Positions 274-13,527 of a DNA stretch of 64,000 nucleotides are shown here, in pieces. Below the pieces are notes generated by a model, which worked only from the letters and a program-made list of their open reading frames with translations, searched no databases and was not told where the DNA came from. Within the stretch, counting starts at the first letter, position 1. Every line of letters begins with the position of its first letter. The stretch is from Gammaproteobacteria bacterium (GTDB lineage Bacteria; Pseudomonadota; Gammaproteobacteria; JBCCGL01): the NCBI GenBank assembly GCA_965277715.1, contig OZ255836.1, forward strand, positions 2,080,001 to 2,144,000, given 5' to 3'. The position numbers and the translations under genes are program-made.

Positions 274-1052
274 CCTATATTCCGCAGTTAAAATTGTTTA
301 TATTTCTCCAAGTATTTGAAAATTTTTAGAAAAGCTATGAAATTATCCGATTCATCCGTTCACCCAAAGAGTGAAGAAAAAAACTCACCGAAAACGGGCT
401 TATCAGAAGCGATAGAAGGTCAGCTTGAAGTAGATACCTACGCAGGTAAAGTGTTTGTAGAGTGGGCCCCGGATTCGGCGGTAACGCCATTAGGTCAACT
501 GCCCTTTTTCATCCACTTTCTCAAGTGGGAAGAGCGTTTTGATCCGTGGGTGGAGGTTTGTCCGCTGAGTGATAGGAGCAACAATGCACCGGCTAAACGA
601 GATGTATTAGGCAGCCTGTTTTTATCGATACTGTCTGGGCATAGACGGTATGCGCATTTAGCGACGTTGCAAGCAGATCGGGTGAACACGAAGTTATTGG
701 GTATGGATAAAGTGGTGAGTGATGATTCGGCGATCCGTACCTTACAAAAGATGCCGGAAGAAGCGTCTATCCACTGGTTGCAGGAACACCTGCTAAGCAG
801 TTGTGATCCCCTGCTACGCTAGCCGTGGATACTGGGTGTGGATGTCACGGTAAAGCCGCTGTATGGCAGTCAGGAAGGAGCGAAAGTCGGTTACAACCCC
901 CACAAACCCGGGAGGCCTTCACACACGTATCATAACCTACCTTATAGCGAGTTTACGGTTGGTGTTGGAAGTGGAAGTACAAGCAGGCAATCAAAGTGTA
1001 GCGTGTTATTGCGCACCGGGTTTACTGGAGCTGTTGGATCGTTTGCCCGAGG
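274..1052 (+). mobile_element. IS1380-family element remnant (transposase pseudogene: in-frame stop at 820-822, frameshift near 935, 3' truncated)
   Basis: ORFs 316..822, 838.. and 863.. join into one transposase-like sequence (TPLGQLPFF...D.TVKPLYG.QEGA.VGYNP.KPGRPSH). Putative terminal sequence cctatattccgcagtt at 274. Confidence 0.75.
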
Positions 1053-1234
1053 GCTGCGTAATAAATATTTATCGTATTGCTGAAAAAAAAATACCGTAGC
1101 AACATTCACAAACTCAAGGGCAAGATCTCTCAAAAAACACTTTGTTTTTTCTATTGCTTGTATACAATCTGGATATTAGAATATACCTATTTTAACTTAG
1201 CAAACCCACTAGCACCCATCTGGAAGATTCTTTA

Positions 1235-3001
1235 GTGGCACATAACAACAAAAATAAACGAGAACTGAAAGCAATCCTATTTGCCGATGTAGTAGGCTAC
1301 ACGCGCCTAATGCAAGACAATGAAGAAGCAACTCATGTAGCAACCACCGAACTAGTCGATATTTTCACAAAGGGTTGCGATAAACTGGGTGGCGAAATGC
1401 TTGAAATAAGAGGCGATGGTATCTTTGCATTATTCACCAGTGCTATAAACTCAGTTCGGTTTGCAGATAAAACACAAGACCTTATCGAAAAACATAATCA
1501 AAAATACGAAGAGCATCGAAAAATACGTTTCCGTATAGGCATTCACTTAGGTGATGTTGTAAAAAATAATAAACACTATTATGGAGACAGTATCAATATC
1601 GCCTCACGCATTGAGGGTTTAGCCGATCCAGGTGGCGTGTGTATTTCCAGCGCAATATACGAACAAGTTAAAAGTAACGGTAGTTTTGGTTACGAATACC
1701 TCGGACCGAAAAAATTAAAAAATGTTACTGAGCCTATTAATACCTACCGAATTGTTAAGGATACAAATACAGCCACTCTTGTAGCAAGCCCACGAGACCC
1801 AGAAGAGAGAAAACAACTTATACCAGAGGAAATTCGACCTTCCGTTGCTGTTTTACCATTTAAAAACACTGATGGAAATCCAGCATTTGATTACTTTCCT
1901 GACGGTATAACTGAAGATATTATTACCAACCTATCCAGGTTTCATAATTTGTTTGTAATCGCACGGAGCTCTTCATTTGTATACAAGAATAGTGTCTTAC
2001 CTGCAAAAGTTATCGGAAGAGAGTTGAACGTTCGCTATCTAGTAGATGGTACTGTTCGCCTAGCAAATAACCGCGTCAGAGTTTCTGTCCAGCTAGTAGA
2101 CACAGACAAAGGTTCAACTATTTGGGCAGATAAATACGATCGCAGTCTTGATTATATTTTTGAGGTGCAAGATGAAATATCGGCAATTATTTGTAATATT
2201 ACTGCCGTCAAAATTGAAAAAGAAGAACGTGCCCGCTCATCACATGTCTTACCTGCAAACTTACACGCTTATGAGTATGTTCTCCAGGGTCAGCAACAAA
2301 TATATTTATATACAAGAAAAAGCGTTAGCTCGGCTCGCAAACTTTATGAATCAGCTATAAAGTATGATCCTCGCTATGCAAGAGCATTTGCATCAATGTC
2401 ACGCACTTTAAACCTAGAATGGCGATATTCATGGTCAAATAACCCAGAAGAGTCACTATCACGTGCACTTGACCTTGCTAAACAAGCTGTTTCAATGGAT
2501 GATAGCGACGCGAGAGGGCATTCTGAACTTGGTTTTGTGTACCTCTATAAAAAAGAACATGACCTATCTATTAATGCCTATGAAAAAGCTCGCATCATCA
2601 ATCCAAATGATGCTGATATTATGGCGGATATGGCTGACGCTCTTGTCCATTCAGGCAAACCTGAAGAAGCTCTAAAAATAATAAAAAAAGCTATGCACTT
2701 AAACCCATTTTATCCTGACCAGTATTTGTGGCACCTAAGCGGAGCACAGTTCAAACTAAAACAATATAGAGATGTTATATCTACAGTAAATAAAGCAAAT
2801 AACCCAACAGAAGGAGAGAGATTACTCGCAGCTAGTTTTGCCCACCTCGGCGACCTAGATAAAGCTAAGTGGTATGCCAACCGAGTTTTAGAAGCTCACC
2901 CGAATTTTTCTTTAAGGCATTGGCAAGAAATACTTCCCGACAAATACGAGGAAGATGCAAAGCACTATATCGAAGGCTTACACATGGCAGGCCTTCGATA
3001 A
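1235..3001 (+). CDS. Class III adenylate/guanylate cyclase with TolB-like and TPR domains
   Basis: AILFADVVGYT, RGDG, FRIGIHLGDV and GDSINIASRIE cyclase motifs; PSVAVLPF...DGITEDII TolB-like segment; C-terminal TPRs. Confidence 0.92.
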   Translation: MAHNNKNKRELKAILFADVVGYTRLMQDNEEATHVATTELVDIFTKGCDKLGGEMLEIRGDGIFALFTSAINSVRFADKTQDLIEKHNQKYEEHRKIRFRIGIHLGDVVKNNKHYYGDSINIASRIEGLADPGGVCISSAIYEQVKSNGSFGYEYLGPKKLKNVTEPINTYRIVKDTNTATLVASPRDPEERKQLIPEEIRPSVAVLPFKNTDGNPAFDYFPDGITEDIITNLSRFHNLFVIARSSSFVYKNSVLPAKVIGRELNVRYLVDGTVRLANNRVRVSVQLVDTDKGSTIWADKYDRSLDYIFEVQDEISAIICNITAVKIEKEERARSSHVLPANLHAYEYVLQGQQQIYLYTRKSVSSARKLYESAIKYDPRYARAFASMSRTLNLEWRYSWSNNPEESLSRALDLAKQAVSMDDSDARGHSELGFVYLYKKEHDLSINAYEKARIINPNDADIMADMADALVHSGKPEEALKIIKKAMHLNPFYPDQYLWHLSGAQFKLKQYRDVISTVNKANNPTEGERLLAASFAHLGDLDKAKWYANRVLEAHPNFSLRHWQEILPDKYEEDAKHYIEGLHMAGLR

Positions 3002-3080
3002 GATTATAAGCTAGTGCACTGAAAGTCAGTGACTTTGATAAAGCTATTTTCCCGCCAAATAGAATACATGCTGTAGACAG

Positions 3081-3530
3081 CTAACTACCTTTTACATGCA
3101 TGCCTTTTACATTCATGCCGCTAGTTTTCAGTTGCTGGTTAGCTGATAGGACAGGTGCCAAAAGTATTTCCTCAAACGCTCCTGTCTCTAAATCTAACCG
3201 AATAGAAAAATCCGCTTTATCATATGTCCAGACACGAATTCCAGCCTGCTCAATCTCTAACTCAGGGTCTGGTTCAATAACAGTCCCTGCCTCAGCCGGT
3301 GTTTGCCCATCCCCGTGCACCATAAAAATGGCAGGACGAGGCATATCATAGTAATGCCCTTCATACTCAAAGCCATAGACACGCGCCAATTGAGCATTTT
3401 CAGCGGACAATTGGCTTTGCAAAGCAGTTGTCGCCCCAGCACCTTGAGAACTCGCCCCTTCAAGCTTTAGATCGGTTACCACTCGCCCGTATAGACGAAT
3501 CACAGATTGATTCAGTAATGTTTCACTCAT
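3081..3530 (-). CDS. Hypothetical protein with repeated C-terminal GMxVK motif; candidate RiPP precursor/substrate
   Basis: 149-aa ORF with an aagaaaggaaac RBS, last gene of the ycaO-tfuA operon; ends ...SGMNVKGMHVKGS. Confidence 0.75.
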   Translation of the reverse strand: MSETLLNQSVIRLYGRVVTDLKLEGASSQGAGATTALQSQLSAENAQLARVYGFEYEGHYYDMPRPAIFMVHGDGQTPAEAGTVIEPDPELEIEQAGIRVWTYDKADFSIRLDLETGAFEEILLAPVLSANQQLKTSGMNVKGMHVKGS

Positions 3531-3561
3531 TAGTGTTTCCTTCTTTCGGTTTGTTGTTAAA

Positions 3562-4932
3562 TTAGTGTCGCAAGTTTAACCGCGCCCGCTGAACTCTTTC
3601 GTAATACGTTAGTCGGCTGTTATTTTCAGCCAACTCAGTCGGTTGCAGCTGTAGTATACGCGTGGAGTGCATGTGGCTTGTGATCTCACCAGGCGCTTCA
3701 AACTGTGGCCCAGCTTCTATTAAGCCGACACCTCTACGCGTTGTATTATGTATTATAATTTCTTTATATGCCCCTTCTGTGTATTCACAATCCACATTAA
3801 TAAGGGCTTCAACTACATCAGCATACCTAAGACACTGAGGTGATAATCTCAAACAGACTCTGGCGAGATAAGTGCCTACAGTATCACGTGCATCCATTAA
3901 TGACTGCTTAAAACCCAGCGGATCAGCCGCAAAGGCACGATCAAAGCCTACCTGGACAAGGTATTGTTTTTCTGGCACATATTCATGTTCATGTGCGAAT
4001 TCTTTTAATGGCTGGCTAATCAACTGCCTCGATAACAATATTTCCTGAAAAATATCGACAAAGATATCAAATATAGCCCCTGTCAGTGGCTGCCCTAACG
4101 CATGTTCATCACTCCAACCATCAACAAAATTCCGCATAGTCAATGTGTTAGCCGCCAGCCTAATTTGCTCATTTCTGGAGAGTTCGGCTATCCGGTTTAG
4201 CCTGTTTAGCGAATACAAATTGCCCGAGGTATTTTCCAGCAATTCATCCAATATCGAGTCAAAGTGCATCACCGCAATAATGGCCGTTAAATCCGCCGCC
4301 GATTCATGGAACCCATAGTATTCGCCTGTTTGATTTTCCGGCTCAGGTACACCCACCTGGCTATAAATAATGCCATGGCCTATCTCGTGTGCAATAACGT
4401 CAAAATTCAGGCAAAAATGACTAAAAAAGCCATCCTCCGTCGTATGGGAACCCGCCTCCATAAACCCGTAACCAATCTGCGCATTTGGAAAGTGCGGCAG
4501 TATCGCCAACTCAAGGCGGTCATAATGGTGATCAAAATGCCAGGGTATAGAGCAGCCGAAATACTGCTCCCAAACATCTAAGGTGAACCGCGCACAACCG
4601 AATAAGTGCGCCAGTTTAAATTCGTGGGAGTCAACTGGGATGTGATCAAAGTGGCCGTGCTTGTCTGGCATTGCAGGTGGATAAATATCCCCCGTCCACG
4701 GGGGCAACAGTAGATAAGAACCGTAGCTGCCACTGTGGCAACCATATTCCTTCACTTTATCAATAGGGTATAACGCATACATTCGATCATCAGCCGGGCC
4801 TGGACCAACCGTTCCAGCCGGGCAGGAAATGTATACCTGTTCCGGTTCATTATCTGCATCGACAAATGGAGCCTGTGGAAACAACCGAAACCGTGTCCCA
4901 CCTGAATCATTATATTGAACTACCTTGTCCAT
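3562..4932 (-). CDS. Zinc metallopeptidase, gluzincin (M4/M36-like)
   Basis: DVIAHEIGH (HExxH) plus downstream GFHESAAD third ligand; no N-terminal signal peptide. Confidence 0.8.
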   Translation of the reverse strand: MDKVVQYNDSGGTRFRLFPQAPFVDADNEPEQVYISCPAGTVGPGPADDRMYALYPIDKVKEYGCHSGSYGSYLLLPPWTGDIYPPAMPDKHGHFDHIPVDSHEFKLAHLFGCARFTLDVWEQYFGCSIPWHFDHHYDRLELAILPHFPNAQIGYGFMEAGSHTTEDGFFSHFCLNFDVIAHEIGHGIIYSQVGVPEPENQTGEYYGFHESAADLTAIIAVMHFDSILDELLENTSGNLYSLNRLNRIAELSRNEQIRLAANTLTMRNFVDGWSDEHALGQPLTGAIFDIFVDIFQEILLSRQLISQPLKEFAHEHEYVPEKQYLVQVGFDRAFAADPLGFKQSLMDARDTVGTYLARVCLRLSPQCLRYADVVEALINVDCEYTEGAYKEIIIHNTTRRGVGLIEAGPQFEAPGEITSHMHSTRILQLQPTELAENNSRLTYYERVQRARLNLRH

Positions 4933-4980
4933 ATTATTTTTTGATCTGCCTTATATTATTTATAGCTTCCGCACACCTTT

Positions 4981-6354
4981 TTACTGGCTTTCCCGTTTCA
5001 TTGCAAGCTCAAAAAAGTGCTGTTTTTTTACCAATTGGTAAAAATCCTCGCGCCGATGGAGGCCTATTTGCAGTAAATAATCATCAAGGTTAGCTGGAAT
5101 GCCCTTACCCAATTTTGACTCAAAATACCAGGCAAGTAATTGCGCAGGCACGATATCAGACGCTAGTTCACCAGAAATACAAGCGGCCCGCTTCGCTTCA
5201 GCACACGCTTTGAGCGCATTATACTCACCACTAAGGCGCAGTTCGTTTAACAACAAATGAACACTCTCATCATCCAGGTCATTCTCAACCGCTTTGCACA
5301 ACTGCTCATCCTGCAAAGCCTGTTGCAGGTTTTCTAGCGTCCAGTTATTTTGTTCAATCCACTGGTCAAGCTGAACACGCGTATACAACCCCAAGTTTTC
5401 CCGCCATGCTTGCAGCTGTTGGCACATTTGCCTGTCACCAATTGCTATGCGTTTGCGCCCCGCCTCGTGCAACGCCAGTTTTTTAAGACGAGCACGCAAC
5501 ATAACCTGACGATAATGTAATGGCGCCAACCTGAGTTCATCGATAATGAGCTGCTCTATACCAGCAACAAGTTGCTTACTCTCTACATGCGATTTTTCCG
5601 CTTTACCTGCCAGTGCATGCCCTGTTACAACGCTATCCCACGCCACTGTCCATTCAAATGCATAGTCGCAACGCATCGGAGCGGCTTCAGAGGAAGAAAA
5701 CGCTGCCAATGCCGCCAACAAAGCTTCAGCATCCTGACATTTTAAGTCCTGCTCCCCTCCCGGCAACCAACGTTCAAATGCCGACAACATATGCGCTTCA
5801 GCACCTGCCTGCTTCGCTGCGGCTACCACACACAACCATTGGCGTTTTTGATAAAAAATAGACTTTGCTGCCGCAATTAACAAATCCGCATCCTGCTTAC
5901 TCACCACTGATTCAGTCAGCGCACGACTTACGGTCGCACGGACATTGACCATAGGAAGAGATAATGACAAGTAGCCCAACTCTGCAGGGCCGTGTAATAC
6001 AGCTACTTCATCATCGTCTTCAAGCACACCATCGCGATAACAGGCAAAAATTTCACCCACACCCCGCATACCGAATGAATGCAATTCAGCAGCGCGCAAC
6101 GCCCCCATACTACTGGCACCAAACACATGAATACCACGCGACATAGCCCAAAGAATTTCTTTGTGCCATACGGAGGGAACACCCTCAAAATAACCATCGA
6201 TGATGGCTATCACATCAGGTGCTGTCTGTGCTGCACGGTACACATCCCCCTGCGAAACTGGGGCTTGCCATTCAACACCTTGCACCGCTTCAACCGCATC
6301 ACGGGAAATACTCGGCCCGGAAAATACAATAGTTTTCACTTGTACTTCATTCAC
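4981..6354 (-). CDS. tfuA: TfuA-like protein with C-terminal helical extension
   Basis: VF.GPS, IIDGYF...PSVWHKEIL, GASSMGALRAAEL and DDDEVAV.HGP motifs. Confidence 0.92.
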   Translation of the reverse strand: MNEVQVKTIVFSGPSISRDAVEAVQGVEWQAPVSQGDVYRAAQTAPDVIAIIDGYFEGVPSVWHKEILWAMSRGIHVFGASSMGALRAAELHSFGMRGVGEIFACYRDGVLEDDDEVAVLHGPAELGYLSLSLPMVNVRATVSRALTESVVSKQDADLLIAAAKSIFYQKRQWLCVVAAAKQAGAEAHMLSAFERWLPGGEQDLKCQDAEALLAALAAFSSSEAAPMRCDYAFEWTVAWDSVVTGHALAGKAEKSHVESKQLVAGIEQLIIDELRLAPLHYRQVMLRARLKKLALHEAGRKRIAIGDRQMCQQLQAWRENLGLYTRVQLDQWIEQNNWTLENLQQALQDEQLCKAVENDLDDESVHLLLNELRLSGEYNALKACAEAKRAACISGELASDIVPAQLLAWYFESKLGKGIPANLDDYLLQIGLHRREDFYQLVKKQHFFELAMKRESQ

Positions 6355-6401
6355 ATTAGCCCGCTATCCCATCCTAAAGAAAGTGTGCAAAGTGCTATGC
6401 A

Positions 6402-7259
6402 TCATAGTTTTTTCTTCTTATCCCGCCAGAACTCCATTTTCTTATATTTATAGTACAGGCTGTTCCCCAAAACCTCACGGGCATCCCAGGTTCTATCTCT
6501 CAGTGCAGGCCCCAGTTTATGCAAATCTGGAATACCATAGGCGCCTGCATCGTTCTCGATAATTTCTTTCTTTATTTTATCAAAATAGTGTGTTTCATTA
6601 TCACCCCATATAGATAGATCTTTACGACCGATAAAACCATATATCTGATCGATAACTTCTCCTGGCTTGGCAATTAAATCTTTTCTCTCTACCAGTAGAA
6701 GGTTTTTTTTACTTTTACTTAAATATGTTTTTTTAAGATTTGCATAACACCAACCAACGCTAGTGGGAATAGTCGGGTTCATCATTAACAGGCAGCGATT
6801 TTCATCGCTCAGTTTTTTATGCTCATTCAGCAGTTGTGCATCAATAAATGAATTGTGGTCGGGATTTTTTCGTATCAGCATAAGAAAGGACGCCAGGCAA
6901 TCTGTAATATTATCGACAGTACAGATTACTTTCATCTCCTCTTGTAAAATTTCCCTGGCAGCGTCAATAGGGTCTTTCATATGCCAGGCCCACGATTTAT
7001 CAAAAATATGCGTTTCCTCCCTGTGTTGATACATACCATCCCGCACACTGCGCCATAGATTTGGCAGTTGATCCGGGTGTTTATAAGCTTTCAGTGTTAC
7101 TGCGTTTTTCCGCCACTTGATCAAAATCTCGCTGATGATTTCACTCAATGGAGAAGCCGGAGAAACATGCATATTTTTATTTTGATTCAGGATTTCACCT
7201 AAAACTGTACTGCCGGTTCTTGGCAGCCCTGCCAGGTAATAATATTTCTTTTGCTTCAC
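6402..7259 (-). CDS. PAPS-dependent sulfotransferase
   Basis: N-terminal 5'-PSB motif AGLPRTGSTVL..ILNQN; FDKS..W motif. Confidence 0.85.
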   Translation of the reverse strand: MKQKKYYYLAGLPRTGSTVLGEILNQNKNMHVSPASPLSEIISEILIKWRKNAVTLKAYKHPDQLPNLWRSVRDGMYQHREETHIFDKSWAWHMKDPIDAAREILQEEMKVICTVDNITDCLASFLMLIRKNPDHNSFIDAQLLNEHKKLSDENRCLLMMNPTIPTSVGWCYANLKKTYLSKSKKNLLLVERKDLIAKPGEVIDQIYGFIGRKDLSIWGDNETHYFDKIKKEIIENDAGAYGIPDLHKLGPALRDRTWDAREVLGNSLYYKYKKMEFWRDKKKKL

Positions 7260-7337
7260 ATTTAACTCGCTTGAATTTACAACGTTACCCTGCTTATTCT
7301 TGCAATCGTACTTTCACTTTGTGCAATCTGCAACGCC

Positions 7338-8591
7338 TCATAAAGTAGCCTGCACCTCGCGAGCACGCGCTCCAGGGATATAATCATCATCATGCGGACC
7401 TTCAAGCCCAGGGATGACAATTCTTACCACTGGAATATTGAACGTTGGTTTAGTGAGATTAATACAAATCACTTCGTCTATTTCAATACGACGCAACTGG
7501 GTTAGCATCCAGTCAACATCTTCCTGAAAGGTGGAAAACTGTCGACTGTCGATGGTGGCAAAATCAACACACCCATTACCCTGCCCGGCAATATTGCGAA
7601 ACACCCGGTTTTTTTCCTGCAGCCTTGCCTGTGTAAATTCAGCATGGGTTAAATCGTCACGCGATCCGGCAATATAGGTTGTGCGCACTTGCACGGCTTC
7701 AGTAAGCGCCCGCACCAGCGCAATCGATTTACTCGGGTGACACCCGGCGCCCAACCCAGGGTGTGCTATAGGGTTGCGTTCATCAAGCAATACACACTCA
7801 AAACAGGCAACACCTGTATCACTACTAATATCCCAAACCGTTATCGATAGATCGGCTGTATGCAACTGCTCAATCAAGCGACGACAAAGCATATCATCCA
7901 CTGAACCAAGATCAAGTTTATCTGCATCGCGCCCCAGTTTACTTTTTTGGTGCCATAGGCTGCTCGCATCGCGTTCAATCACTTCACATATCGCATGCGA
8001 TACCGCCTCCAGGTAGTGGTTACCCGATGCCAGGCCATTACTACTCTGTGCAAAGCACCCACTGCCAGAAGGCGATGGGTGGTTATAGCAGGTATGCACA
8101 ATTTCATAGGGCAACCAAGTGTTTTTTGTATCGAGAAGGTTGCTGCCTTCAATCCATAAAATAGGCCATGTTGGTTGATACCGACTGCCGCACATTGCCG
8201 GCAAGCGGTCAATGTTGACTAAATGCTGGTTATCCGACAGATCATCAAAGCTACCCAGCTTTAGTGGAAGTTCAATGTGCTCAGCATGCCACGACTCAAC
8301 TGATTCCATCAGCCCTGAAGCTTTGGCGGCGTCTAATGTCAACCCTTTCCCTTGGGAAACGGCAATAGAGCGGGAATTAGGGCGGCATACCATCACCACC
8401 GGTATACCAATACGATCCAATCCGGTAACGTTGGCGATGCGTGTGATACCCATTACAGGCATAAACGGCATTACATTGGCCAGTGTTTCTGCCGGTTCAA
8501 TCAGAAGGTGTGCACCGGTTTGGTAGCATTTTTCCGCACGCTCTAATGCTATTGGAGGGTATTGTTGTGGAGATTCAGTATGCTTTGGCAT
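7338..8591 (-). CDS. ycaO: YcaO-family protein (TfuA-associated, thioamide-forming type)
   Basis: GITRIANVTGLDRIGIPV, SQGKG, SNGLASG, EVIERDA and RALTEAVQ.R ATP-binding motifs; no C-terminal PxP. Confidence 0.93.
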   Translation of the reverse strand: MPKHTESPQQYPPIALERAEKCYQTGAHLLIEPAETLANVMPFMPVMGITRIANVTGLDRIGIPVVMVCRPNSRSIAVSQGKGLTLDAAKASGLMESVESWHAEHIELPLKLGSFDDLSDNQHLVNIDRLPAMCGSRYQPTWPILWIEGSNLLDTKNTWLPYEIVHTCYNHPSPSGSGCFAQSSNGLASGNHYLEAVSHAICEVIERDASSLWHQKSKLGRDADKLDLGSVDDMLCRRLIEQLHTADLSITVWDISSDTGVACFECVLLDERNPIAHPGLGAGCHPSKSIALVRALTEAVQVRTTYIAGSRDDLTHAEFTQARLQEKNRVFRNIAGQGNGCVDFATIDSRQFSTFQEDVDWMLTQLRRIEIDEVICINLTKPTFNIPVVRIVIPGLEGPHDDDYIPGARAREVQATL

Positions 8592-8724
8592 CGCGTTGTA
8601 CTGTGTTTAACTCTGTCATCCGCACAGCAGGCCCGTGGCATGAAAGACTGTCAATAAACCATCCACATTCGATGTCAACCAGGCTACACTTGAAAGTACA
8701 AGACAGATCTATCAAGCAGACAAA

Positions 8725-8943
8725 GTGCATAAACTCACCTTTGAGCTATCGATCAGTAGCGATCAATGGCTACATTATTACGCAGGCCACGCCAATGCAG
8801 TGCGTGTTGTGGCCGACAACGGCAAATCACTACAACTACCCGCCAGCGCACTGCGCCCGTTTATTTTGCACAATGGTATACACGGTCGATTTGTCGTGCG
8901 TTTTGACCAATACAATAAGCTATTGGGTATTAATCGTTTATAG
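8725..8943 (+). CDS. DUF2835-family protein
   Basis: F.L.IS...L.YY.G.A..V.V....G..LQLPA..LRPF....GI.G.F. Confidence 0.8.
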   Translation: MHKLTFELSISSDQWLHYYAGHANAVRVVADNGKSLQLPASALRPFILHNGIHGRFVVRFDQYNKLLGINRL

Positions 8944-8984
8944 AGAGTGTACAATAACTGGTTTTACATTTTACGGTATCACAC

Positions 8985-9272
8985 ATGAGCCAACTCCAGC
9001 TTTCCGCAGAACTCGTTCGCCAACTCCACCAATCACTGGCCGACCATGACGATAATGCCGAAGACCCCGGTGTAGCCGCACAATATATGGCAGCCATTAT
9101 TGGCTTCTTACTTGGTGAACAGGATATGCCAGACACACAAAAGGAGGAGATACTTGAACAGTTGTTTGCCTTTGCAAAGCATGTTGCAAATGACGTTAGC
9201 CAACAGAAAAAAGCCCCTCCAGCTCCTCCACCACAAAATGCATTTGGTGTATGGAAACCTGGCATGAGCTAA
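8985..9272 (+). CDS. Conserved hypothetical protein
   Basis: ORF in operon position; C-terminal AFGVWKPG. Confidence 0.7.
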   Translation: MSQLQLSAELVRQLHQSLADHDDNAEDPGVAAQYMAAIIGFLLGEQDMPDTQKEEILEQLFAFAKHVANDVSQQKKAPPAPPPQNAFGVWKPGMS

Positions 9273-9337
9273 ACCCATACATGAATTTGTTTTTTTCCCT
9301 ATAGTTATTTCCCCTTTCCAGATCGAGTATCTCTCTA

Positions 9338-9616
9338 ATGTCACAAGCCAGCGCACGCCATATCTTGGTCAACAGCGAAGAACAATGCAATACACTGAAA
9401 CAACAAATCATCGATGGTGCTGATTTTGCCGCTGTCGCCGCCGAGCACTCACAGTGCCCTTCTGGCAAGCAGGGCGGTGAACTTGGCACTTTTTCACCTG
9501 GCCAGATGGTACGTGAATTTGATACTGTCGTATTTAACGAGGCAGTGGGTGAAGTGCATGGCCCGGTACAAACACAGTTCGGCTACCACCTGATCGAAAC
9601 CACCTCACGTACCTGA
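9338..9616 (+). CDS. ppiC: Parvulin peptidyl-prolyl isomerase
   Basis: ARHILV, HS.CPS..QGG.LG.F, TQFGYHLI. Confidence 0.95.
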   Translation: MSQASARHILVNSEEQCNTLKQQIIDGADFAAVAAEHSQCPSGKQGGELGTFSPGQMVREFDTVVFNEAVGEVHGPVQTQFGYHLIETTSRT

Positions 9617-9641
9617 GCAATTTGTCATAACAGGCACCAAC

Positions 9642-10346
9642 ATGACCGAGACCGTCTTTTACCAGGATAGCTACGCCACCCACTGCGATGCACATATCAC
9701 AGCGATCACTGATAATACGATTACGCTTGATCGCACTGTTTTTTACCCGATGGGAGGCGGCCAACCCGGTGATACCGGCACACTGATCAGCCAGAGTGGG
9801 GAACATATTGCCGTTACCGATACCCGAAAAGAAGGAGACGATATTGTCCACTGGGTGGAAGTCGATTTATCAACCATTGCTGTCGGTGATCATATTACTG
9901 CCGAAATAGACTGGGTTCGTCGGCACCGCCATATGCGCATGCACACTTGCCTGCACCTGCTATGTTCGCTGATTGATGCCCCCGTAACCGGTGGCTCTGT
10001 TGCCGCCGACAAAGCACGGCTGGATTTTGATTTACCCGAATCCACACTCGATAAGGAAGCTCTGAACACATCGCTAAAACAGCTAATCGATAACGATCAT
10101 ACTATTAGTATTGAATGGATTAGTGACAAAGCGCTGGAACAACAACCAGAGTTGGTGCGCACCATGTCAGTTAAGCCTCCCACAGGGCATGGCAAAGTAC
10201 GACTAATCAATATCGAGAATGTAGATCTACAACCTTGTGGCGGCACGCATTTGCAATCCACTGGTGAAATTGGCGCAGTGCGCGTACGTAAGATCGAAAA
10301 AAAGGGCAAACAGAACCGGCGCGTGATTCTGGTATTTGACGAATAA
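9642..10346 (+). CDS. AlaX alanyl-tRNA editing protein
   Basis: FYP.GGGQPGD, HMRMHTCLHLL, QPCGGTH. Confidence 0.92.
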   Translation: MTETVFYQDSYATHCDAHITAITDNTITLDRTVFYPMGGGQPGDTGTLISQSGEHIAVTDTRKEGDDIVHWVEVDLSTIAVGDHITAEIDWVRRHRHMRMHTCLHLLCSLIDAPVTGGSVAADKARLDFDLPESTLDKEALNTSLKQLIDNDHTISIEWISDKALEQQPELVRTMSVKPPTGHGKVRLINIENVDLQPCGGTHLQSTGEIGAVRVRKIEKKGKQNRRVILVFDE

Positions 10347-10363
10347 AGCGCCACTTGCTAAAG

Positions 10364-10705
10364 CTATGCACTGCGTCGCCCTATTACTCGCCCAACAAAG
10401 GTAACCTCAGTGCCAGGCTGAGGCACCCAGGGAATAACTGCGACAACCCCAATGAAAGCACGGCAAAACCAGCGCCAATTAAAAATACCATAGCAGGTGA
10501 AACCAACCACAAAAGCAATAAACCCGGGCACTTCACGCAAACTTTGTAAAATACCAATCTCGGCGCCGGTAAACTGCGCCTGCTCAACGGCAAAATTATT
10601 CAGCAATGTCTGCCAGGCAGCAAAAGAAAACGGCACCGCTGCAGCCATCAGGTACAGCAAGCACTCTGGTGACTTCCAGTTTTTCAAAAAGGAGATAAAA
10701 ACCAC
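10364..10705 (-). pseudogene. MFS transporter, internally deleted
   Basis: N-terminal LLNNFAVE...EIGILQSLREVPGF is fused out of frame to a C-terminal-type LWLVSPAMVFLIGAGFA segment; only ~340 bp remain. Confidence 0.75.
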
Positions 10706-10897
10706 TATCGTTCCCCACTAAGACTTAAGAGCAAGTCTAACAGGCTGTTTATCAGAAGCCTGTCGGGTTTAGGTACTCGTAGCGAGGAAAAGACCGGATT
10801 GAATCATTTTTTGCGCACTGTTGAGGTGCACAAAAAAGGGCCAAATCAGCTTTTCCATAGTAAAACAGCATTGAATCCGGCAGGCGCCTGCCATTGA

Positions 10898-11968
10898 TTA
10901 AAACAAAGGTAACTGCACCATCTCATAGATAGACACTGGCACCAGGCCCGACACACTGACACCGAGCAAACGCACCGGCTTATTGGCGACATCTGTCCTT
11001 TCCAGCAACAGCGGCAAACGAGACAACATGTCCTCTGCACAACAAATCCGACTGGCTAACGAATGGCTACGCGTCACCAACTGAAAATCTGCATAGCGTA
11101 CTTTGATCGTCAGTGTGCGCGCTGTAAGGCTTTTAGACAGTAAACCATCGGCCACCTGAATAGCCAACTGTTCAAGCTGATCTAACATCTTTTCAGGTCG
11201 GGTTAAATCGACTTGAAAGGTCGTCTCCGAACCAATTGACTGCCGTTGACGAGCGTGCTCGACAAGCCGGTTATCGATACCACGGGCTATATTAAAATAA
11301 TACTGTGCCGACCTGCCAAAATGTGCCTGTAATTCCACTAATGACCAAGCGCGCAAATCGGCACCCGTTTCAATGCCCAGCTGGTGCATTTTCGCCTCAG
11401 TTACACGCCCCACCCCATGAAACCTTGCAATAGGTAGACTGGCGACAAACGCCTCACCCTGCTCCGGCAAAATGACAGTCAACCCATCGGGTTTATTCAT
11501 TGCAGAGGCAATCTTGGCAAAAAACTTGTTGTAGGATACGCCCGCAGATGCCGTCAGTCCCGTCGCAGCAAAAATCTGCTGCCTGATCGACTGAGCCAAG
11601 CGGGTAGCAGACCCTTGGCACTGCTGCACCTCACTGACATCGAGATACGCTTCATCCAGTGACAACGGCTCAACCAGCTCAGTAAAACACCGAAATACAT
11701 GATGAATCGTTGTGGAAACCGCTTTATACACATCAAACCGTGGTTGGATAAAAATCGCCTGCGGGCACAAGCGGTACGCCTGCGCACTTGGCATCGCCGA
11801 ATGAACACCAAACTGGCGTGCCTCATAACTACACGCTGCAACTACCCCACGGCTGTGCGGCTTACCACCCACGACAACAGGCTTCCCCCTATATGCAGGA
11901 TTATCACGCTGTTCCACAGAAGCGTAATATGCATCCATGTCGATATGTAAGATCTTGCGTTGGTTCAC
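10898..11968 (-). CDS. dinB: DNA polymerase IV
   Basis: RKILHIDMDAYYASVE, SYEAR.FG, EPLSLDEAYLD; GTG start at 11968 preferred over the longer ORF. Confidence 0.95.
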   Translation of the reverse strand: MNQRKILHIDMDAYYASVEQRDNPAYRGKPVVVGGKPHSRGVVAACSYEARQFGVHSAMPSAQAYRLCPQAIFIQPRFDVYKAVSTTIHHVFRCFTELVEPLSLDEAYLDVSEVQQCQGSATRLAQSIRQQIFAATGLTASAGVSYNKFFAKIASAMNKPDGLTVILPEQGEAFVASLPIARFHGVGRVTEAKMHQLGIETGADLRAWSLVELQAHFGRSAQYYFNIARGIDNRLVEHARQRQSIGSETTFQVDLTRPEKMLDQLEQLAIQVADGLLSKSLTARTLTIKVRYADFQLVTRSHSLASRICCAEDMLSRLPLLLERTDVANKPVRLLGVSVSGLVPVSIYEMVQLPLF

Positions 11969-12381
11969 AGTACTATTTAACCTAAAAGCCTCAGTTGAGT
12001 GCAAAAAAGCTGTGTAAGCATAGGCACGCACGGAAAGGTTTAAAGGTTCAAGACTTGGAACCACCCTTACTTACTGGGCTGTTTGTATCATTTTTGCACT
12101 ATCTATAAGCAACATTTGCTGTATCTAGAGCAATATTTGCACAAAATATGTTGCCAAAAAACAACAAAAATAAAAAAAAGCAGTAAATAAAAATAGGAAA
12201 ACAACTACAACCTATTGATAAACAATGAATAAACAACAAAAAGAGGCCATCTAAATATATTTCCACATAGGCTGTTGCATTTTAGATACAAGCCTTCTAT
12301 ATTTCGCACCGTGGTTGTGAAGCCACTTCCAAATAATTTTTTCTGATTAGTTTTGTTATAAACAAACCGAAGGAAACACAT

Positions 12382-13527
12382 ATGAATTTTAAAAAAACTG
12401 CAATTGCACTGGCTGTTGCCAGTGTTGCTGCCACACCGATAATTGCATCGGCTGATGGTAGTGTTTATGCCTCTGCACGTATTGGTTTACAGTACTTAGA
12501 TGGAGGTGAAAACCGTAACGGTGATAGTGTTAACGAAACCACCGATAGCGAAATAACTGTTCGTAGTTATGCAGCTCGTTTGGGCTTTAAAGGCGAAACC
12601 GAAATTGGAAATGGTTGGTCTGGTTGGGGTCGTTATGAGCTTGAAGTACTAACTGATGCAGCGAGAGATAACACCTCTCAGGATGCTACGTTTAGACGCC
12701 GTCATGCTGTTGCTGGCCTTAAAAGTGAACATAACAATATCTATGTAGGACAAACCTCACATACTTGGTATAACCATATTGTTGGACCTGCCGATTATCC
12801 TTGGTGGGGTTCTGGTTACGCATTGGTAAAATACGATATTCGTGAGGACAATGGCATCACTTATAATGGTAGTTTTGGCGTTGTAGAGTTTGGGATTACT
12901 GGTTTTTTTCAACCTGATAACCTTGGCGGTAACTTAAGTAGCAGCGGTGATTCCGAAGTACTTGATGAATACCAGTTGGCAATTTCCTTTAATATAGGTT
13001 CTAGTGTACGTCTTGGTCTTGGTCTTGCAGGCGCATTAGGTGATTTTGAAAATACTGGTTCTCCTGCTGTTGCTGCTGTTCCTGCTAATACAACAAACGG
13101 AGATGGTATTCCAAACACAGCAGGTTCTGAAGCTGTTGATCCTGTTCCTGCCACTGCTGTAGAAGATGAACCTATTATAGGTGTTTCTCTTAGTATTGAT
13201 CTTGGTTCAGTAAATCTTGCTGGCAACTATCAAACTCAGAGCCTGAATGGTGGTGGTGACAATAACAGTATCTCACTCAACGTAGCGCTATATGACTTCA
13301 ACATTCACTATGAATCAGTGGATTTTGGAAACAGTAGCACAGCTAACACAGCTTTAAATACTAGCAATTTAAATGTTGATCAAACAAGCCTGACTTTGGG
13401 TTATACCTTAAACCTCGGCCCTCGAACTTTGATATGGTTCGAATTACAGCAGCTTGATCGTGATACTGTTAACGATAATGATGATAGGACGATTGGCCGT
13501 GCTACACTGAAATACGATATTCTGTAA
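12382..13527 (+). CDS. Gram-negative porin
   Basis: Signal peptide MNFKKTAIALAVA, RLGFKG.E..G.G amphipathic strands, C-terminal LKYDIL. Confidence 0.85.
   Translation: MNFKKTAIALAVASVAATPIIASADGSVYASARIGLQYLDGGENRNGDSVNETTDSEITVRSYAARLGFKGETEIGNGWSGWGRYELEVLTDAARDNTSQDATFRRRHAVAGLKSEHNNIYVGQTSHTWYNHIVGPADYPWWGSGYALVKYDIREDNGITYNGSFGVVEFGITGFFQPDNLGGNLSSSGDSEVLDEYQLAISFNIGSSVRLGLGLAGALGDFENTGSPAVAAVPANTTNGDGIPNTAGSEAVDPVPATAVEDEPIIGVSLSIDLGSVNLAGNYQTQSLNGGGDNNSISLNVALYDFNIHYESVDFGNSSTANTALNTSNLNVDQTSLTLGYTLNLGPRTLIWFELQQLDRDTVNDNDDRTIGRATLKYDIL

Follow-up and report, generated by a model that had tools for sequence, protein, structure and literature searches.

A repeat-tailed protein with YcaO, TfuA, peptidase and cyclase partners as a candidate multi-core peptide system of Proteobacteria

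The closest described system to the locus treated here is the thiovarsolin pathway of Streptomyces varsoviensis (Santos-Aberturas et al. 2019)—as the accessible passages describe it, the precursor VarA carries 1–5 repeats, VarY (YcaO) and VarT (TfuA) install a thioamide, and the products are N-acetylated tripeptides (PMC6511847). According to the available parts of Malit et al. 2021, the characterised YcaO–TfuA thioamidated members of the RiPPs (peptides made by the ribosome and modified after translation) are all actinobacterial, and most TfuA-type clusters are proteobacterial and uncharacterised (PMC8120280). Here we describe a YcaO–TfuA locus in a 64,000-nucleotide stretch of contig OZ255836.1 from a Gammaproteobacteria bacterium (hereafter the window). 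Genes for YcaO, a sulfotransferase-domain protein, a long-form TfuA, an HExxH metallopeptidase and a repeat-tailed protein of 149 residues, P149, run there in one direction, and a class III nucleotidyl cyclase with tetratricopeptide repeats (TPR) lies next to P149.

In our reading P149 is a precursor with several cores, which undergoes thioamidation and is then cleaved to small peptides that the cyclase may sense; we give this reading a rough probability of 0.58. We place the locus in an undescribed, widespread variant of the YcaO–TfuA multi-core peptide pathways, with a plausible link to cyclic-nucleotide signalling. An earlier note, made from the DNA letters alone, had proposed that the five co-oriented genes form a complete pathway to a thioamidated, possibly sulfated peptide; the conserved YcaO, TfuA, peptidase and repeat-protein genes are consistent with a thioamidated RiPP pathway, but the sulfotransferase is no member of the conserved set.

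We compare the locus with the thiovarsolin pathway by description and do not file it as a member of that family. The likeness lies in a YcaO–TfuA pair that acts, or in the module would act, on a short-repeat core (two units in the window) and in the very small, linear, thioamidated and N-acetylated products described in the accessible passages (PMC6511847); GNAT acetyltransferase genes flank about 35 of 80 module loci. The differences are several: in those same passages VarA is a short peptide whose repeats are imperfect and whose leader is ordinary, no protease is dedicated to the var cluster, and its hosts are Actinobacteria, whereas P149 has a folded N-terminal domain of about 125 residues and its family 2–10 near-perfect units, the thermolysin-fold peptidase is a nearly constant part of the module, a cyclase-TPR partner is present, and the hosts are Proteobacteria. 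Among the neighbour clusters found in at least 10 of the 80 loci there is, as far as scanned, no heme-oxygenase-like protein (VarO), ATP-grasp enzyme or amidinotransferase.

YcaO enzymes are also known to modify intact proteins. The available passages on YcaO enzymes describe thioamidation of Met82 of the ribosomal protein uL16 by Escherichia coli YcaO, uL16-type YcaOs that occur without TfuA, and TfuA with a ThiS-type carrier as the route for sulfide; McrA and uL16 are there large structured proteins modified at one site, unlike tandem arrays (PMC13063428). The McrA thioglycine models are the best NCBIfam matches of both window proteins (TIGR03266 for YcaO, NF033432 for TfuA), and what is shared is the chemistry of backbone O-to-S exchange; however, the window proteins score below the equivalog cut-offs (228 bits against 365 for YcaO, 209.6 against 235.2 for TfuA).

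A third comparison is with RRNPP-type signalling in Firmicutes, in which short peptides are read by TPR receptors. As in those systems, the gene that would be the source of a short peptide adjoins a gene for a TPR protein, and peptide sequence and TPR co-vary between lineages. In contrast, the module has no export or import step and no helix-turn-helix or phosphatase output—it has a cyclase output instead—and the source of its peptide would be a tandem array, served by a dedicated metalloprotease and by a pair of thioamidation proteins, so that the analogy is functional only.

No published description of the module was found, in agreement with the earlier note's remark that no characterised RiPP class is known to have this set of genes. 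In the full texts searched (without their supplements, which may depict the cluster), no paper links YcaO or TfuA to such a repeat-tailed protein, to a thermolysin-like peptidase or to a cyclase, and no link between RiPP-type peptides and cyclic-nucleotide signalling was found. RiPP mining tools set size limits on precursor peptides, and a P149-type precursor of about 150–200 residues exceeds the small precursors they seek, which may be why the family is unreported. The available passages of PMC8120280 mention no repeat-tailed protein of about 150–200 residues, thermolysin-like peptidase or cyclase, and its supplementary figures might show the cluster; in its main text the words 'repeat', 'Mesorhizobium' and 'Paracoccus' occur 0 times and 'peptidase' once, in a legend (prolyl endopeptidase, S9).

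A conserved gene module around P149

P149 has no Pfam or NCBIfam family. We sought its relatives by a degenerate-pattern scan with one genome per species, which gave 273 genomes, and kept the best 80 loci; these are the related loci referred to throughout. They are mostly from Alphaproteobacteria (Mesorhizobium, Rhizobium, Ruegeria, Roseovarius, Paracoccus denitrificans, Hoeflea and Anderseniella), with some from Gammaproteobacteria and Burkholderiales. In a profile search of 1.84 billion representatives the family comprised 498 clusters at E ≤ 1e-10, rising to 647 members at E ≤ 1e-3; a set of 5.8 billion proteins contains 20 relatives of P149, the protein itself not counted, and a metagenome scan for close relatives gave six loci with only 40–42% identity.

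Gene presence in the 80 loci was scored by tblastn with the window's five proteins. P149 is matched in 80/80 loci, the HExxH peptidase in 73, TfuA in 67, YcaO in 64 (37–71% identity) and the sulfotransferase in one; YcaO and TfuA are both present in 64. The order YcaO–TfuA–HExxH–P149 recurs on one strand in 60 of the 80 loci, so the window's arrangement is not due to chance, and P149 is the last gene of the operon in 60; several of the remaining loci are cut by contig ends. Of the five genes, whose joint conservation the earlier note had named as a check, four are conserved together; the sulfotransferase lies inside the cluster in 0/80 loci.

The same loci point to a partner that the earlier note, in calling the pathway complete, had overlooked. 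When all open reading frames (ORFs) of the 80 loci are clustered, the largest cluster, above that of P149, is a protein of about 600 residues that adjoins P149 in 69 loci, on either strand; its members are full-length homologs of the window cyclase (46–61% identity over residues 4–587). The cyclase gene adjoins P149 also in loci without YcaO and TfuA, and it is a more constant partner of P149 than YcaO is (69 loci against 64). The window protein has a class III catalytic domain (PF00211, E 2.6e-13, residues 13–173) with nearly invariant D18, D61, N121 and R125, a weak FlgO/TolB-N-like match in the middle and matches to multiple TPR families at the C-terminus; we take D18 and D61 to be the metal-binding Asp pair and presume roles in the cyclase for N121 and R125 as well. 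By sequence comparison the cyclase-TPR protein is a conserved sixth member of the module.

The module is a widespread proteobacterial gene set whose core consists of the cyclase-TPR protein, the peptidase and P149, because such loci persist without adjacent YcaO and TfuA; in most lineages YcaO and a long-form TfuA, translationally coupled, are joined to this core. The loci without the adjacent pair, in Rhizobium and some Mesorhizobium, have the order cyclase–HExxH–P149, and among five genomes that carry them four have TfuA genes elsewhere and one has no TfuA.

Window YcaO matches PF02624 over the whole model (E 5e-75, positions 1–325 of 325), and window TfuA matches PF07812 (E 2.5e-48, residues 53–171 of 457). 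Both features of a YcaO–TfuA cluster, a YcaO domain and a TfuA partner, are thus present, the pair being split in the window by the sulfotransferase, and P149, with its conserved N-domain and hypervariable tandem tail, is the sole candidate for a cluster-encoded precursor and would be the substrate. Azoline formation was considered as the shared function of YcaO and rejected; many units (GGGKV, RGANV, GAMVR, GYNV) contain no Cys, Ser or Thr, which excludes azolines as the shared reaction and leaves TfuA-dependent thioamidation.

TfuA homologs cover residues 6–448 in most loci. The C-terminal extension of TfuA has no Pfam match when searched alone, and Protein Atlas, queried with P149 and with the extension, gave nothing beyond long-form TfuA clusters. 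TfuA frames elsewhere in Rhizobium and Mesorhizobium genomes are mostly short (5/7 have 249–289 residues; the others have 400 and 624). Loci of the Hoeflea/Anderseniella type (L048, L053, L061 and L080) have a short TfuA of about 265 residues without the extension in a full operon with 7–8 SGARV units, so the extension is not essential to the module. In an alphaproteobacterial metagenome-assembled genome (L012, 952–3507), the YcaO and TfuA ORFs end at one stop in an open frame of about 850 residues, which may be a YcaO–TfuA fusion.

The HExxH protein has no Pfam match at E ≤ 0.01 and no NCBIfam match at E ≤ 1, and a sequence-profile search of the PDB with the alignment of its family gave only ACE at E 0.15, nothing real. 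Its motif is HEIGH (residues 182–186), followed 24 residues on by ExxxD, which would supply the Glu ligand typical of M4 and M36; H182, E183, G185, H186, E210 and D214 are, among others, invariant in 40 homologs, and from the ExxxD motif we take E210 to be the third zinc ligand. An AlphaFold (AF2) model (pLDDT 87, pTM 0.88) matched 27 PDB chains in Foldseek at E ≤ 1e-3, with probability 1.00 for the leading M36 and M4 enzymes—fungalysin (M36, 7qfy, 1.9e-6), aureolysin (1bqb, 2.8e-6) and thermolysin (4tln, 7e-6) at the top, and vibriolysin also—at 10–14% identity. With thermolysin (M4) and fungalysin (M36) the protein shares the fold (Foldseek E 2e-6 to 1e-3) and the set of zinc-binding and catalytic residues contained in HExxH and ExxxD; it differs in the low identity, in having no family-model or PDB sequence match, in an extra N-terminal beta domain and C-terminal helical domain, and in lacking a signal peptide or propeptide, hence its predicted cytoplasmic location. 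It has no hydrophobic N-terminus and no transmembrane segment. On this model we class it as a gluzincin of thermolysin fold, predicted to be cytoplasmic, that would act as the M4 and M36 enzymes do but falls outside both families as they are defined.

GNAT acetyltransferases of two unrelated families occur beside the module at two different positions, one family in 22 and the other in 13 of the 80 loci, which suggests independent recruitment of N-acetylation and recalls the N-acetylated thiovarsolins. The 22 lie beyond the cyclase, and the 13 lie directly after P149 or before ycaO; L001 (12351–13043) and L002 (10507–11082) are two of these 35 loci. Five Mesorhizobium loci (L024, at 9344–9619, and four others) have a conserved ORF of about 91–97 residues, without a Pfam family, between the peptidase gene and P149.

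The repeat array and its covariation with the module proteins

The N-domain of P149 is well conserved—A49, G58, V71, W101, D104, D107 and G117 are invariant in 49 homologs. The AF2 model (pLDDT 77.6 overall, about 90 over residues 40–80) is beta-rich with a helix at 119–136. No usable match to its fold was found with Foldseek against the PDB (best E 0.54) or VIA-align wide (best Z 3.0, GroES-like), which is not proof of a new fold, and a PDB sequence-profile search with the P149 alignment gave only spurious or marginal rows. Many members of the family (P0028, P0031, P0059, P0068, P0086 and others; 270–420 residues) are matched by the profile in two stretches, with a long variable insertion after about the first 28 residues of the N-domain; some of the insertions are proline-rich (P0009, P0019).

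The C-terminus of P149 is a disordered tail that across the family consists of a tandem array of a 4–9-residue unit differing between lineages. Such arrays are found in 78 related loci with periods of 4–7 residues, and among the best 148 family representatives 107 have at least three units, with 97 distinct units in all. The number of units ranges from 2 to 10 (3–10 in most relatives), and the unit sequence is hypervariable between lineages: SGAKV occurs seven times in Ruegeria and Roseovarius, GMSAR or GMNAR six to seven times in Mesorhizobium, SGARV eight times and SGKRV four times, and other units are SGANLG, SGADLR, SGSDLRT, SGAHARI, SGGKAY, GGGKV, GYNV and RAQLTG. Most tails end in ...G-x-(S/G)-D or RR. 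The window array is the shortest, with two units, GMNVK and GMHVK, followed by GS; its nearest relatives (66–69% identity) have 4–6 units of GMRVS or GMHMK. The repeated tail that the earlier note saw on the terminal protein would be weak evidence alone, but it is the shortest case of an array found across the family.

Codon usage within the arrays was compared in 65 loci with at least three units, the expectation being independent draws from the codon usage of neighbouring cluster genes. Same-residue codon pairs in adjacent units differ in 972 of 1,596 cases (60.9%), against 60.9% expected, and only 34 pairs differ in amino acid; a cruder count over all loci gives 1,080 synonymous and 52 non-synonymous differences between units. 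Recent replication slippage as the origin of the repeats was rejected, as the codons are scrambled like independent draws and the peptides are near-identical. Synonymous sites are saturated or actively scrambled and the peptides are identical, so the peptide of each unit is held by selection—an unusually clean signature of selection per unit. Such identity suits a template from which a single defined peptide is made many times over, and is more than a spacer, a tether or a generic low-complexity tail calls for.

Covariation between the unit and the module proteins was measured over 29 loci dereplicated at less than 80% peptidase identity, with the identity of YcaO and the TfuA N-terminal part regressed out as background. 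Unit similarity follows the identity of the peptidase and of the cyclase TPR equally well (partial r 0.53, permutation p 0.0005 for each), and less closely that of the cyclase middle domain (0.26, p 0.0005), the cyclase catalytic domain (0.25, p 0.0020) and the P149 N-domain (0.18, p 0.0045); the TfuA C-extension shows none (−0.04, p 0.69). It tells against a strong use of these values that the permutation ignores phylogeny, that the regions differ in length and rate, and that p is not a probability of co-evolution. It is suggestive that the presumed readers of the unit, the peptidase and the TPR domain, track it better than does the N-domain encoded by the tail's own gene. A complex prediction for cyclase residues 185–588 with P149 scored 0.00 and counts neither for nor against binding.

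Readings of the module

If P149 is a multi-core precursor, the module may work as follows. P149 would be made in the cytoplasm, with its folded N-domain of about 125 residues as a recognition handle; YcaO would use ATP to activate a backbone amide in each unit of the tail, and TfuA would deliver sulfide, with a ThiS-type thiocarboxylate as its probable source, so that each unit gains one thioamide, as the chemistry of the two families suggests. The HExxH peptidase would then cut the array into many identical peptides of 4–9 residues; where a GNAT gene lies nearby, as in about 35 of 80 relatives, these may be N-acetylated. Most speculative of all is the last step, in which the peptide or the tail would be read by the cyclase's TPR domain and so be coupled to cyclic-nucleotide output. 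The earlier note had given the cytoplasmic peptidase the task of leader removal; its cytoplasmic placement agrees with the lack of an export signal, but excision of repeat units is the more likely task.

That RiPP-type peptide chemistry may be tied to cyclic-nucleotide signalling is suggested by the nearly constant presence of the cyclase-TPR protein and by the covariation of the unit with the TPR domain and the protease. One tentative extension, which we consider much less probable than the precursor reading itself, is a self-contained cytoplasmic circuit in which the protease frees lineage-specific, usually thioamidated oligopeptides that are the cognate TPR ligands controlling the class III cyclase—ligand, protease and receptor forming a co-evolving triad. 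The link between peptide chemistry and cyclic nucleotides, if it holds, would assign a role to one of the many cyclase-TPR orphans of Alphaproteobacteria. For YcaO–TfuA pairs the module supplies a concrete candidate family of substrates that is widespread (273 species genomes, 498 sequence clusters), and tractable carriers such as Paracoccus denitrificans, Ruegeria and Mesorhizobium allow direct tests of the chemistry.

The analysis establishes what the domains are, how the peptidase folds, the synteny, the architecture of the repeats, their selection signature and the covariation; several points weigh against the precursor reading built on them. Every chemical step, cleavage and binding event in the P149 family is one that we infer, and a leader alone would not usually be a conserved, folded domain of 125 residues. 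In Rhizobium and some Mesorhizobium loci the core stands without YcaO and TfuA beside it, and one such genome lacks any TfuA; thioamidation is therefore not obligatory. No transporter is conserved in the 80 loci; ABC ATPases lie near only 14, at variable distance. The window's copy may be degenerate, as its array stops at two units and does not close with the usual ...G-x-S/G-D.

Variation within the window's species adds to these points. Near-identical DNA is present in nine runs of four studies, three labelled sponge metagenome. In same-species contigs of runs X5 and X6, from two studies, a +1 insertion in codon 98 of tfuA (window 6061) leads to a stop at codon 101, and both runs also have a 19-nt deletion at the ycaO stop (window 7336). 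Synonymous and non-synonymous single-nucleotide polymorphisms (SNPs) number 5:6 for ycaO and 4:4 for tfuA, compared with 6:3 for the peptidase gene and 1:0 for P149, all small numbers; the peptidase gene and P149 have no indels among these contigs. Judged from these sequences, the pattern suggests relaxed constraint on the thioamidation genes in the window's species, with decay of these genes possible among part of its population. Run X4, whose contigs cover the whole stretch, has an in-frame 3-nt deletion in ycaO (window 7383).

Of the other explanations, the one that survives best takes P149 as a stable regulatory protein whose tail is thioamidated in place and which binds or controls the cyclase-TPR protein, the protease trimming or degrading it as a switch, with no peptide product. 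We regard this as unlikely, although it accounts well for an N-domain that is folded and conserved beyond a leader's need, for a set of proteins that are all cytoplasmic with no conserved exporter, and for the persistence of the cyclase–HExxH–P149 core without YcaO and TfuA; it also has precedents in the intact proteins McrA and uL16, which YcaO enzymes modify according to the available passages (PMC13063428). What speaks against it is the array itself: a tether or degron needs no exact identity of units, yet the units are identical with saturated synonymous sites, and their varying number (2–10) and hypervariable sequence are as in multi-core precursors. That a dedicated peptidase co-varies with the unit likewise agrees with cleavage at every unit.

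An exported antimicrobial or siderophore-like thioamide peptide, with the cyclase-TPR protein as a transcriptional-level regulator answering an unrelated cue, is improbable. Hypervariable cores are typical of antagonistic peptides, the Met- and His-rich units of the window's clade (GMHVK, GMHMK) could bind metal, and in the accessible passages of PMC8120280 the known YcaO–TfuA RiPPs are secreted bioactive compounds. However, neither an immunity gene nor a signal sequence is conserved in the 80 related loci, any more than a transporter is; the covariation of unit and TPR would be unexpected if the cyclase ignored the peptide, and peptides of 4–9 residues made of Gly, Ala, Ser, Arg and Lys would be unusual antibiotics.

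The remaining explanation turns on the sulfotransferase, to which the earlier note had assigned a tailoring role. The protein has a PAPS-sulfotransferase domain (PF00685, Sulfotransfer_1, 37.7 bits against a cut-off of 22), and its N-terminal PRTGST presumably corresponds to the 5'-phosphosulfate loop, which it resembles. Its sole match in the related loci (L062) has 28% identity and lies 6 kb off on the opposite strand, and it was not found in 5/5 cluster-bearing genomes searched. Homologs occur in 5 of 400 sampled genomes of one class; the best (about 64–65% identity) has around it the genes of IspA, a porin, Rsd, YciO and TrpS, and no gene of the cluster is found within 9 kb. The family includes more than 120 proteins with 62–78% identity over the full 285 residues, labelled as coming from several phyla, and so large and tightly conserved a family implies a conserved substrate of its own. 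The gene has a GC content of 0.40–0.43 against 0.48–0.50 in its flanks and is located exactly at the ycaO–tfuA junction. There the two genes overlap in relatives, the stop of ycaO with the start of tfuA, and an ATGA is still present where ycaO ends in the window. Given the lower GC, the presence of the gene inside 0/80 related clusters, the abundant stand-alone family and its housekeeping context elsewhere, the sequences suggest that the sulfotransferase gene is probably a species-specific insertion of an unrelated abundant gene, a co-transcribed passenger. The insertion is stable within the species: contigs of X4, X5 and X6, from three further studies, bridge the gene, and no joint skips it.

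A role of the sulfotransferase in tailoring is accordingly very doubtful, the window units GMNVK and GMHVK having no Tyr, Ser or Thr hydroxyl to bear an O-sulfate. A five-gene pathway to a sulfated RiPP is the least probable of the explanations: the gene's co-orientation in the operon with 78- and 47-nt spacers, terminator-like sites no more frequent than chance, the same arrangement on contigs of the three further studies, SNPs of 4 synonymous to 3 non-synonymous (not obviously decaying) and a conceivable swap of capping enzyme in a window that lacks the GNAT of its closest relatives are outweighed by the gene's absence from related clusters and cluster-bearing genomes, the conserved substrate to which its abundant family points, the 64%-identical copy between IspA and porin genes, the GC mark of an insertion and the units without hydroxyls.

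Gene layout and neighbourhood

A check of the window's ORFs confirmed the five minus-strand genes at the coordinates of the earlier note, which had described them as co-oriented with short spacers; the spacers along the run are 78, 47, 48 and 31 nt (Table 1). None of the six proteins (the five and the cyclase) has a signal-peptide-like N-terminus or a clear transmembrane segment; hydropathy over 19 residues peaks at 1.69, a borderline value in an internal stretch of the sulfotransferase, and the other five reach at most 1.47. In a scan of 2900–9700 we found one promoter-like site against 13.2 expected and six terminator-like sites against 6.5 expected.

Table 1. Features of the locus in the window (positions in the window; strand as read)
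Feature	Position	Strand	Remarks
YcaO, 417 aa	7338-8591	-	ATP-dependent backbone amide activator, presumed thioamide-forming partner of TfuA
Sulfotransferase-domain protein, 285 aa	6402-7259	-	PF00685; inserted between ycaO and tfuA
Long-form TfuA, 457 aa	4981-6354	-	TfuA domain at residues 53-171 plus C-terminal extension of ~240 aa
HExxH zinc metallopeptidase, 456 aa	3562-4932	-	Thermolysin fold, without signal peptide; presumed processor of the repeat tail
P149, 149 aa	3081-3530	-	Conserved N-domain plus repeat tail
P149 N-terminal domain, ~residues 1-125	3156-3530	-	Presumed recognition ('leader') domain
P149 C-terminal tail SGMNVKGMHVKGS	3084-3122	-	Two pentapeptide units, contracted form of the family's tandem core array
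Class III nucleotidyl cyclase + TolB-N/FlgO-like middle + TPR, 588 aa	1235-3001	+	Convergent with P149

A PADLOC search gave only generic similarity of the cyclase to PycC (best E 2.9e-9) and indicated no defence system. About 1 kb upstream of ycaO (8592–9641), ORFs at 8483–9049, 8930–9265 and 9534–9851 have no Pfam match; this stretch has no conserved counterpart in related loci and could serve as promoter or regulatory DNA, or represent another insertion. Beyond it lie genes for a protein with an AlaX-like tRNA-editing domain (9642–10346), a DinB/IMS-family translesion polymerase (10898–12064) and a porin (12382–13527); none of these genes (9642–13527) is conserved beside the module in other genomes.

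A search of the window for GNAT homologs gave none (best E 0.59). Upstream of the cyclase, two adjacent short ORFs of 168 and 81 residues (316–1083, plus strand) resemble broken transposase fragments; the 168-residue ORF has a weak match to the IS1380 family (E 5.9e-4; 18.6 bits, where the cut-off is 180), and this possible IS1380 transposase remnant sits where the closest relatives, L001 and L007, have a GNAT gene.

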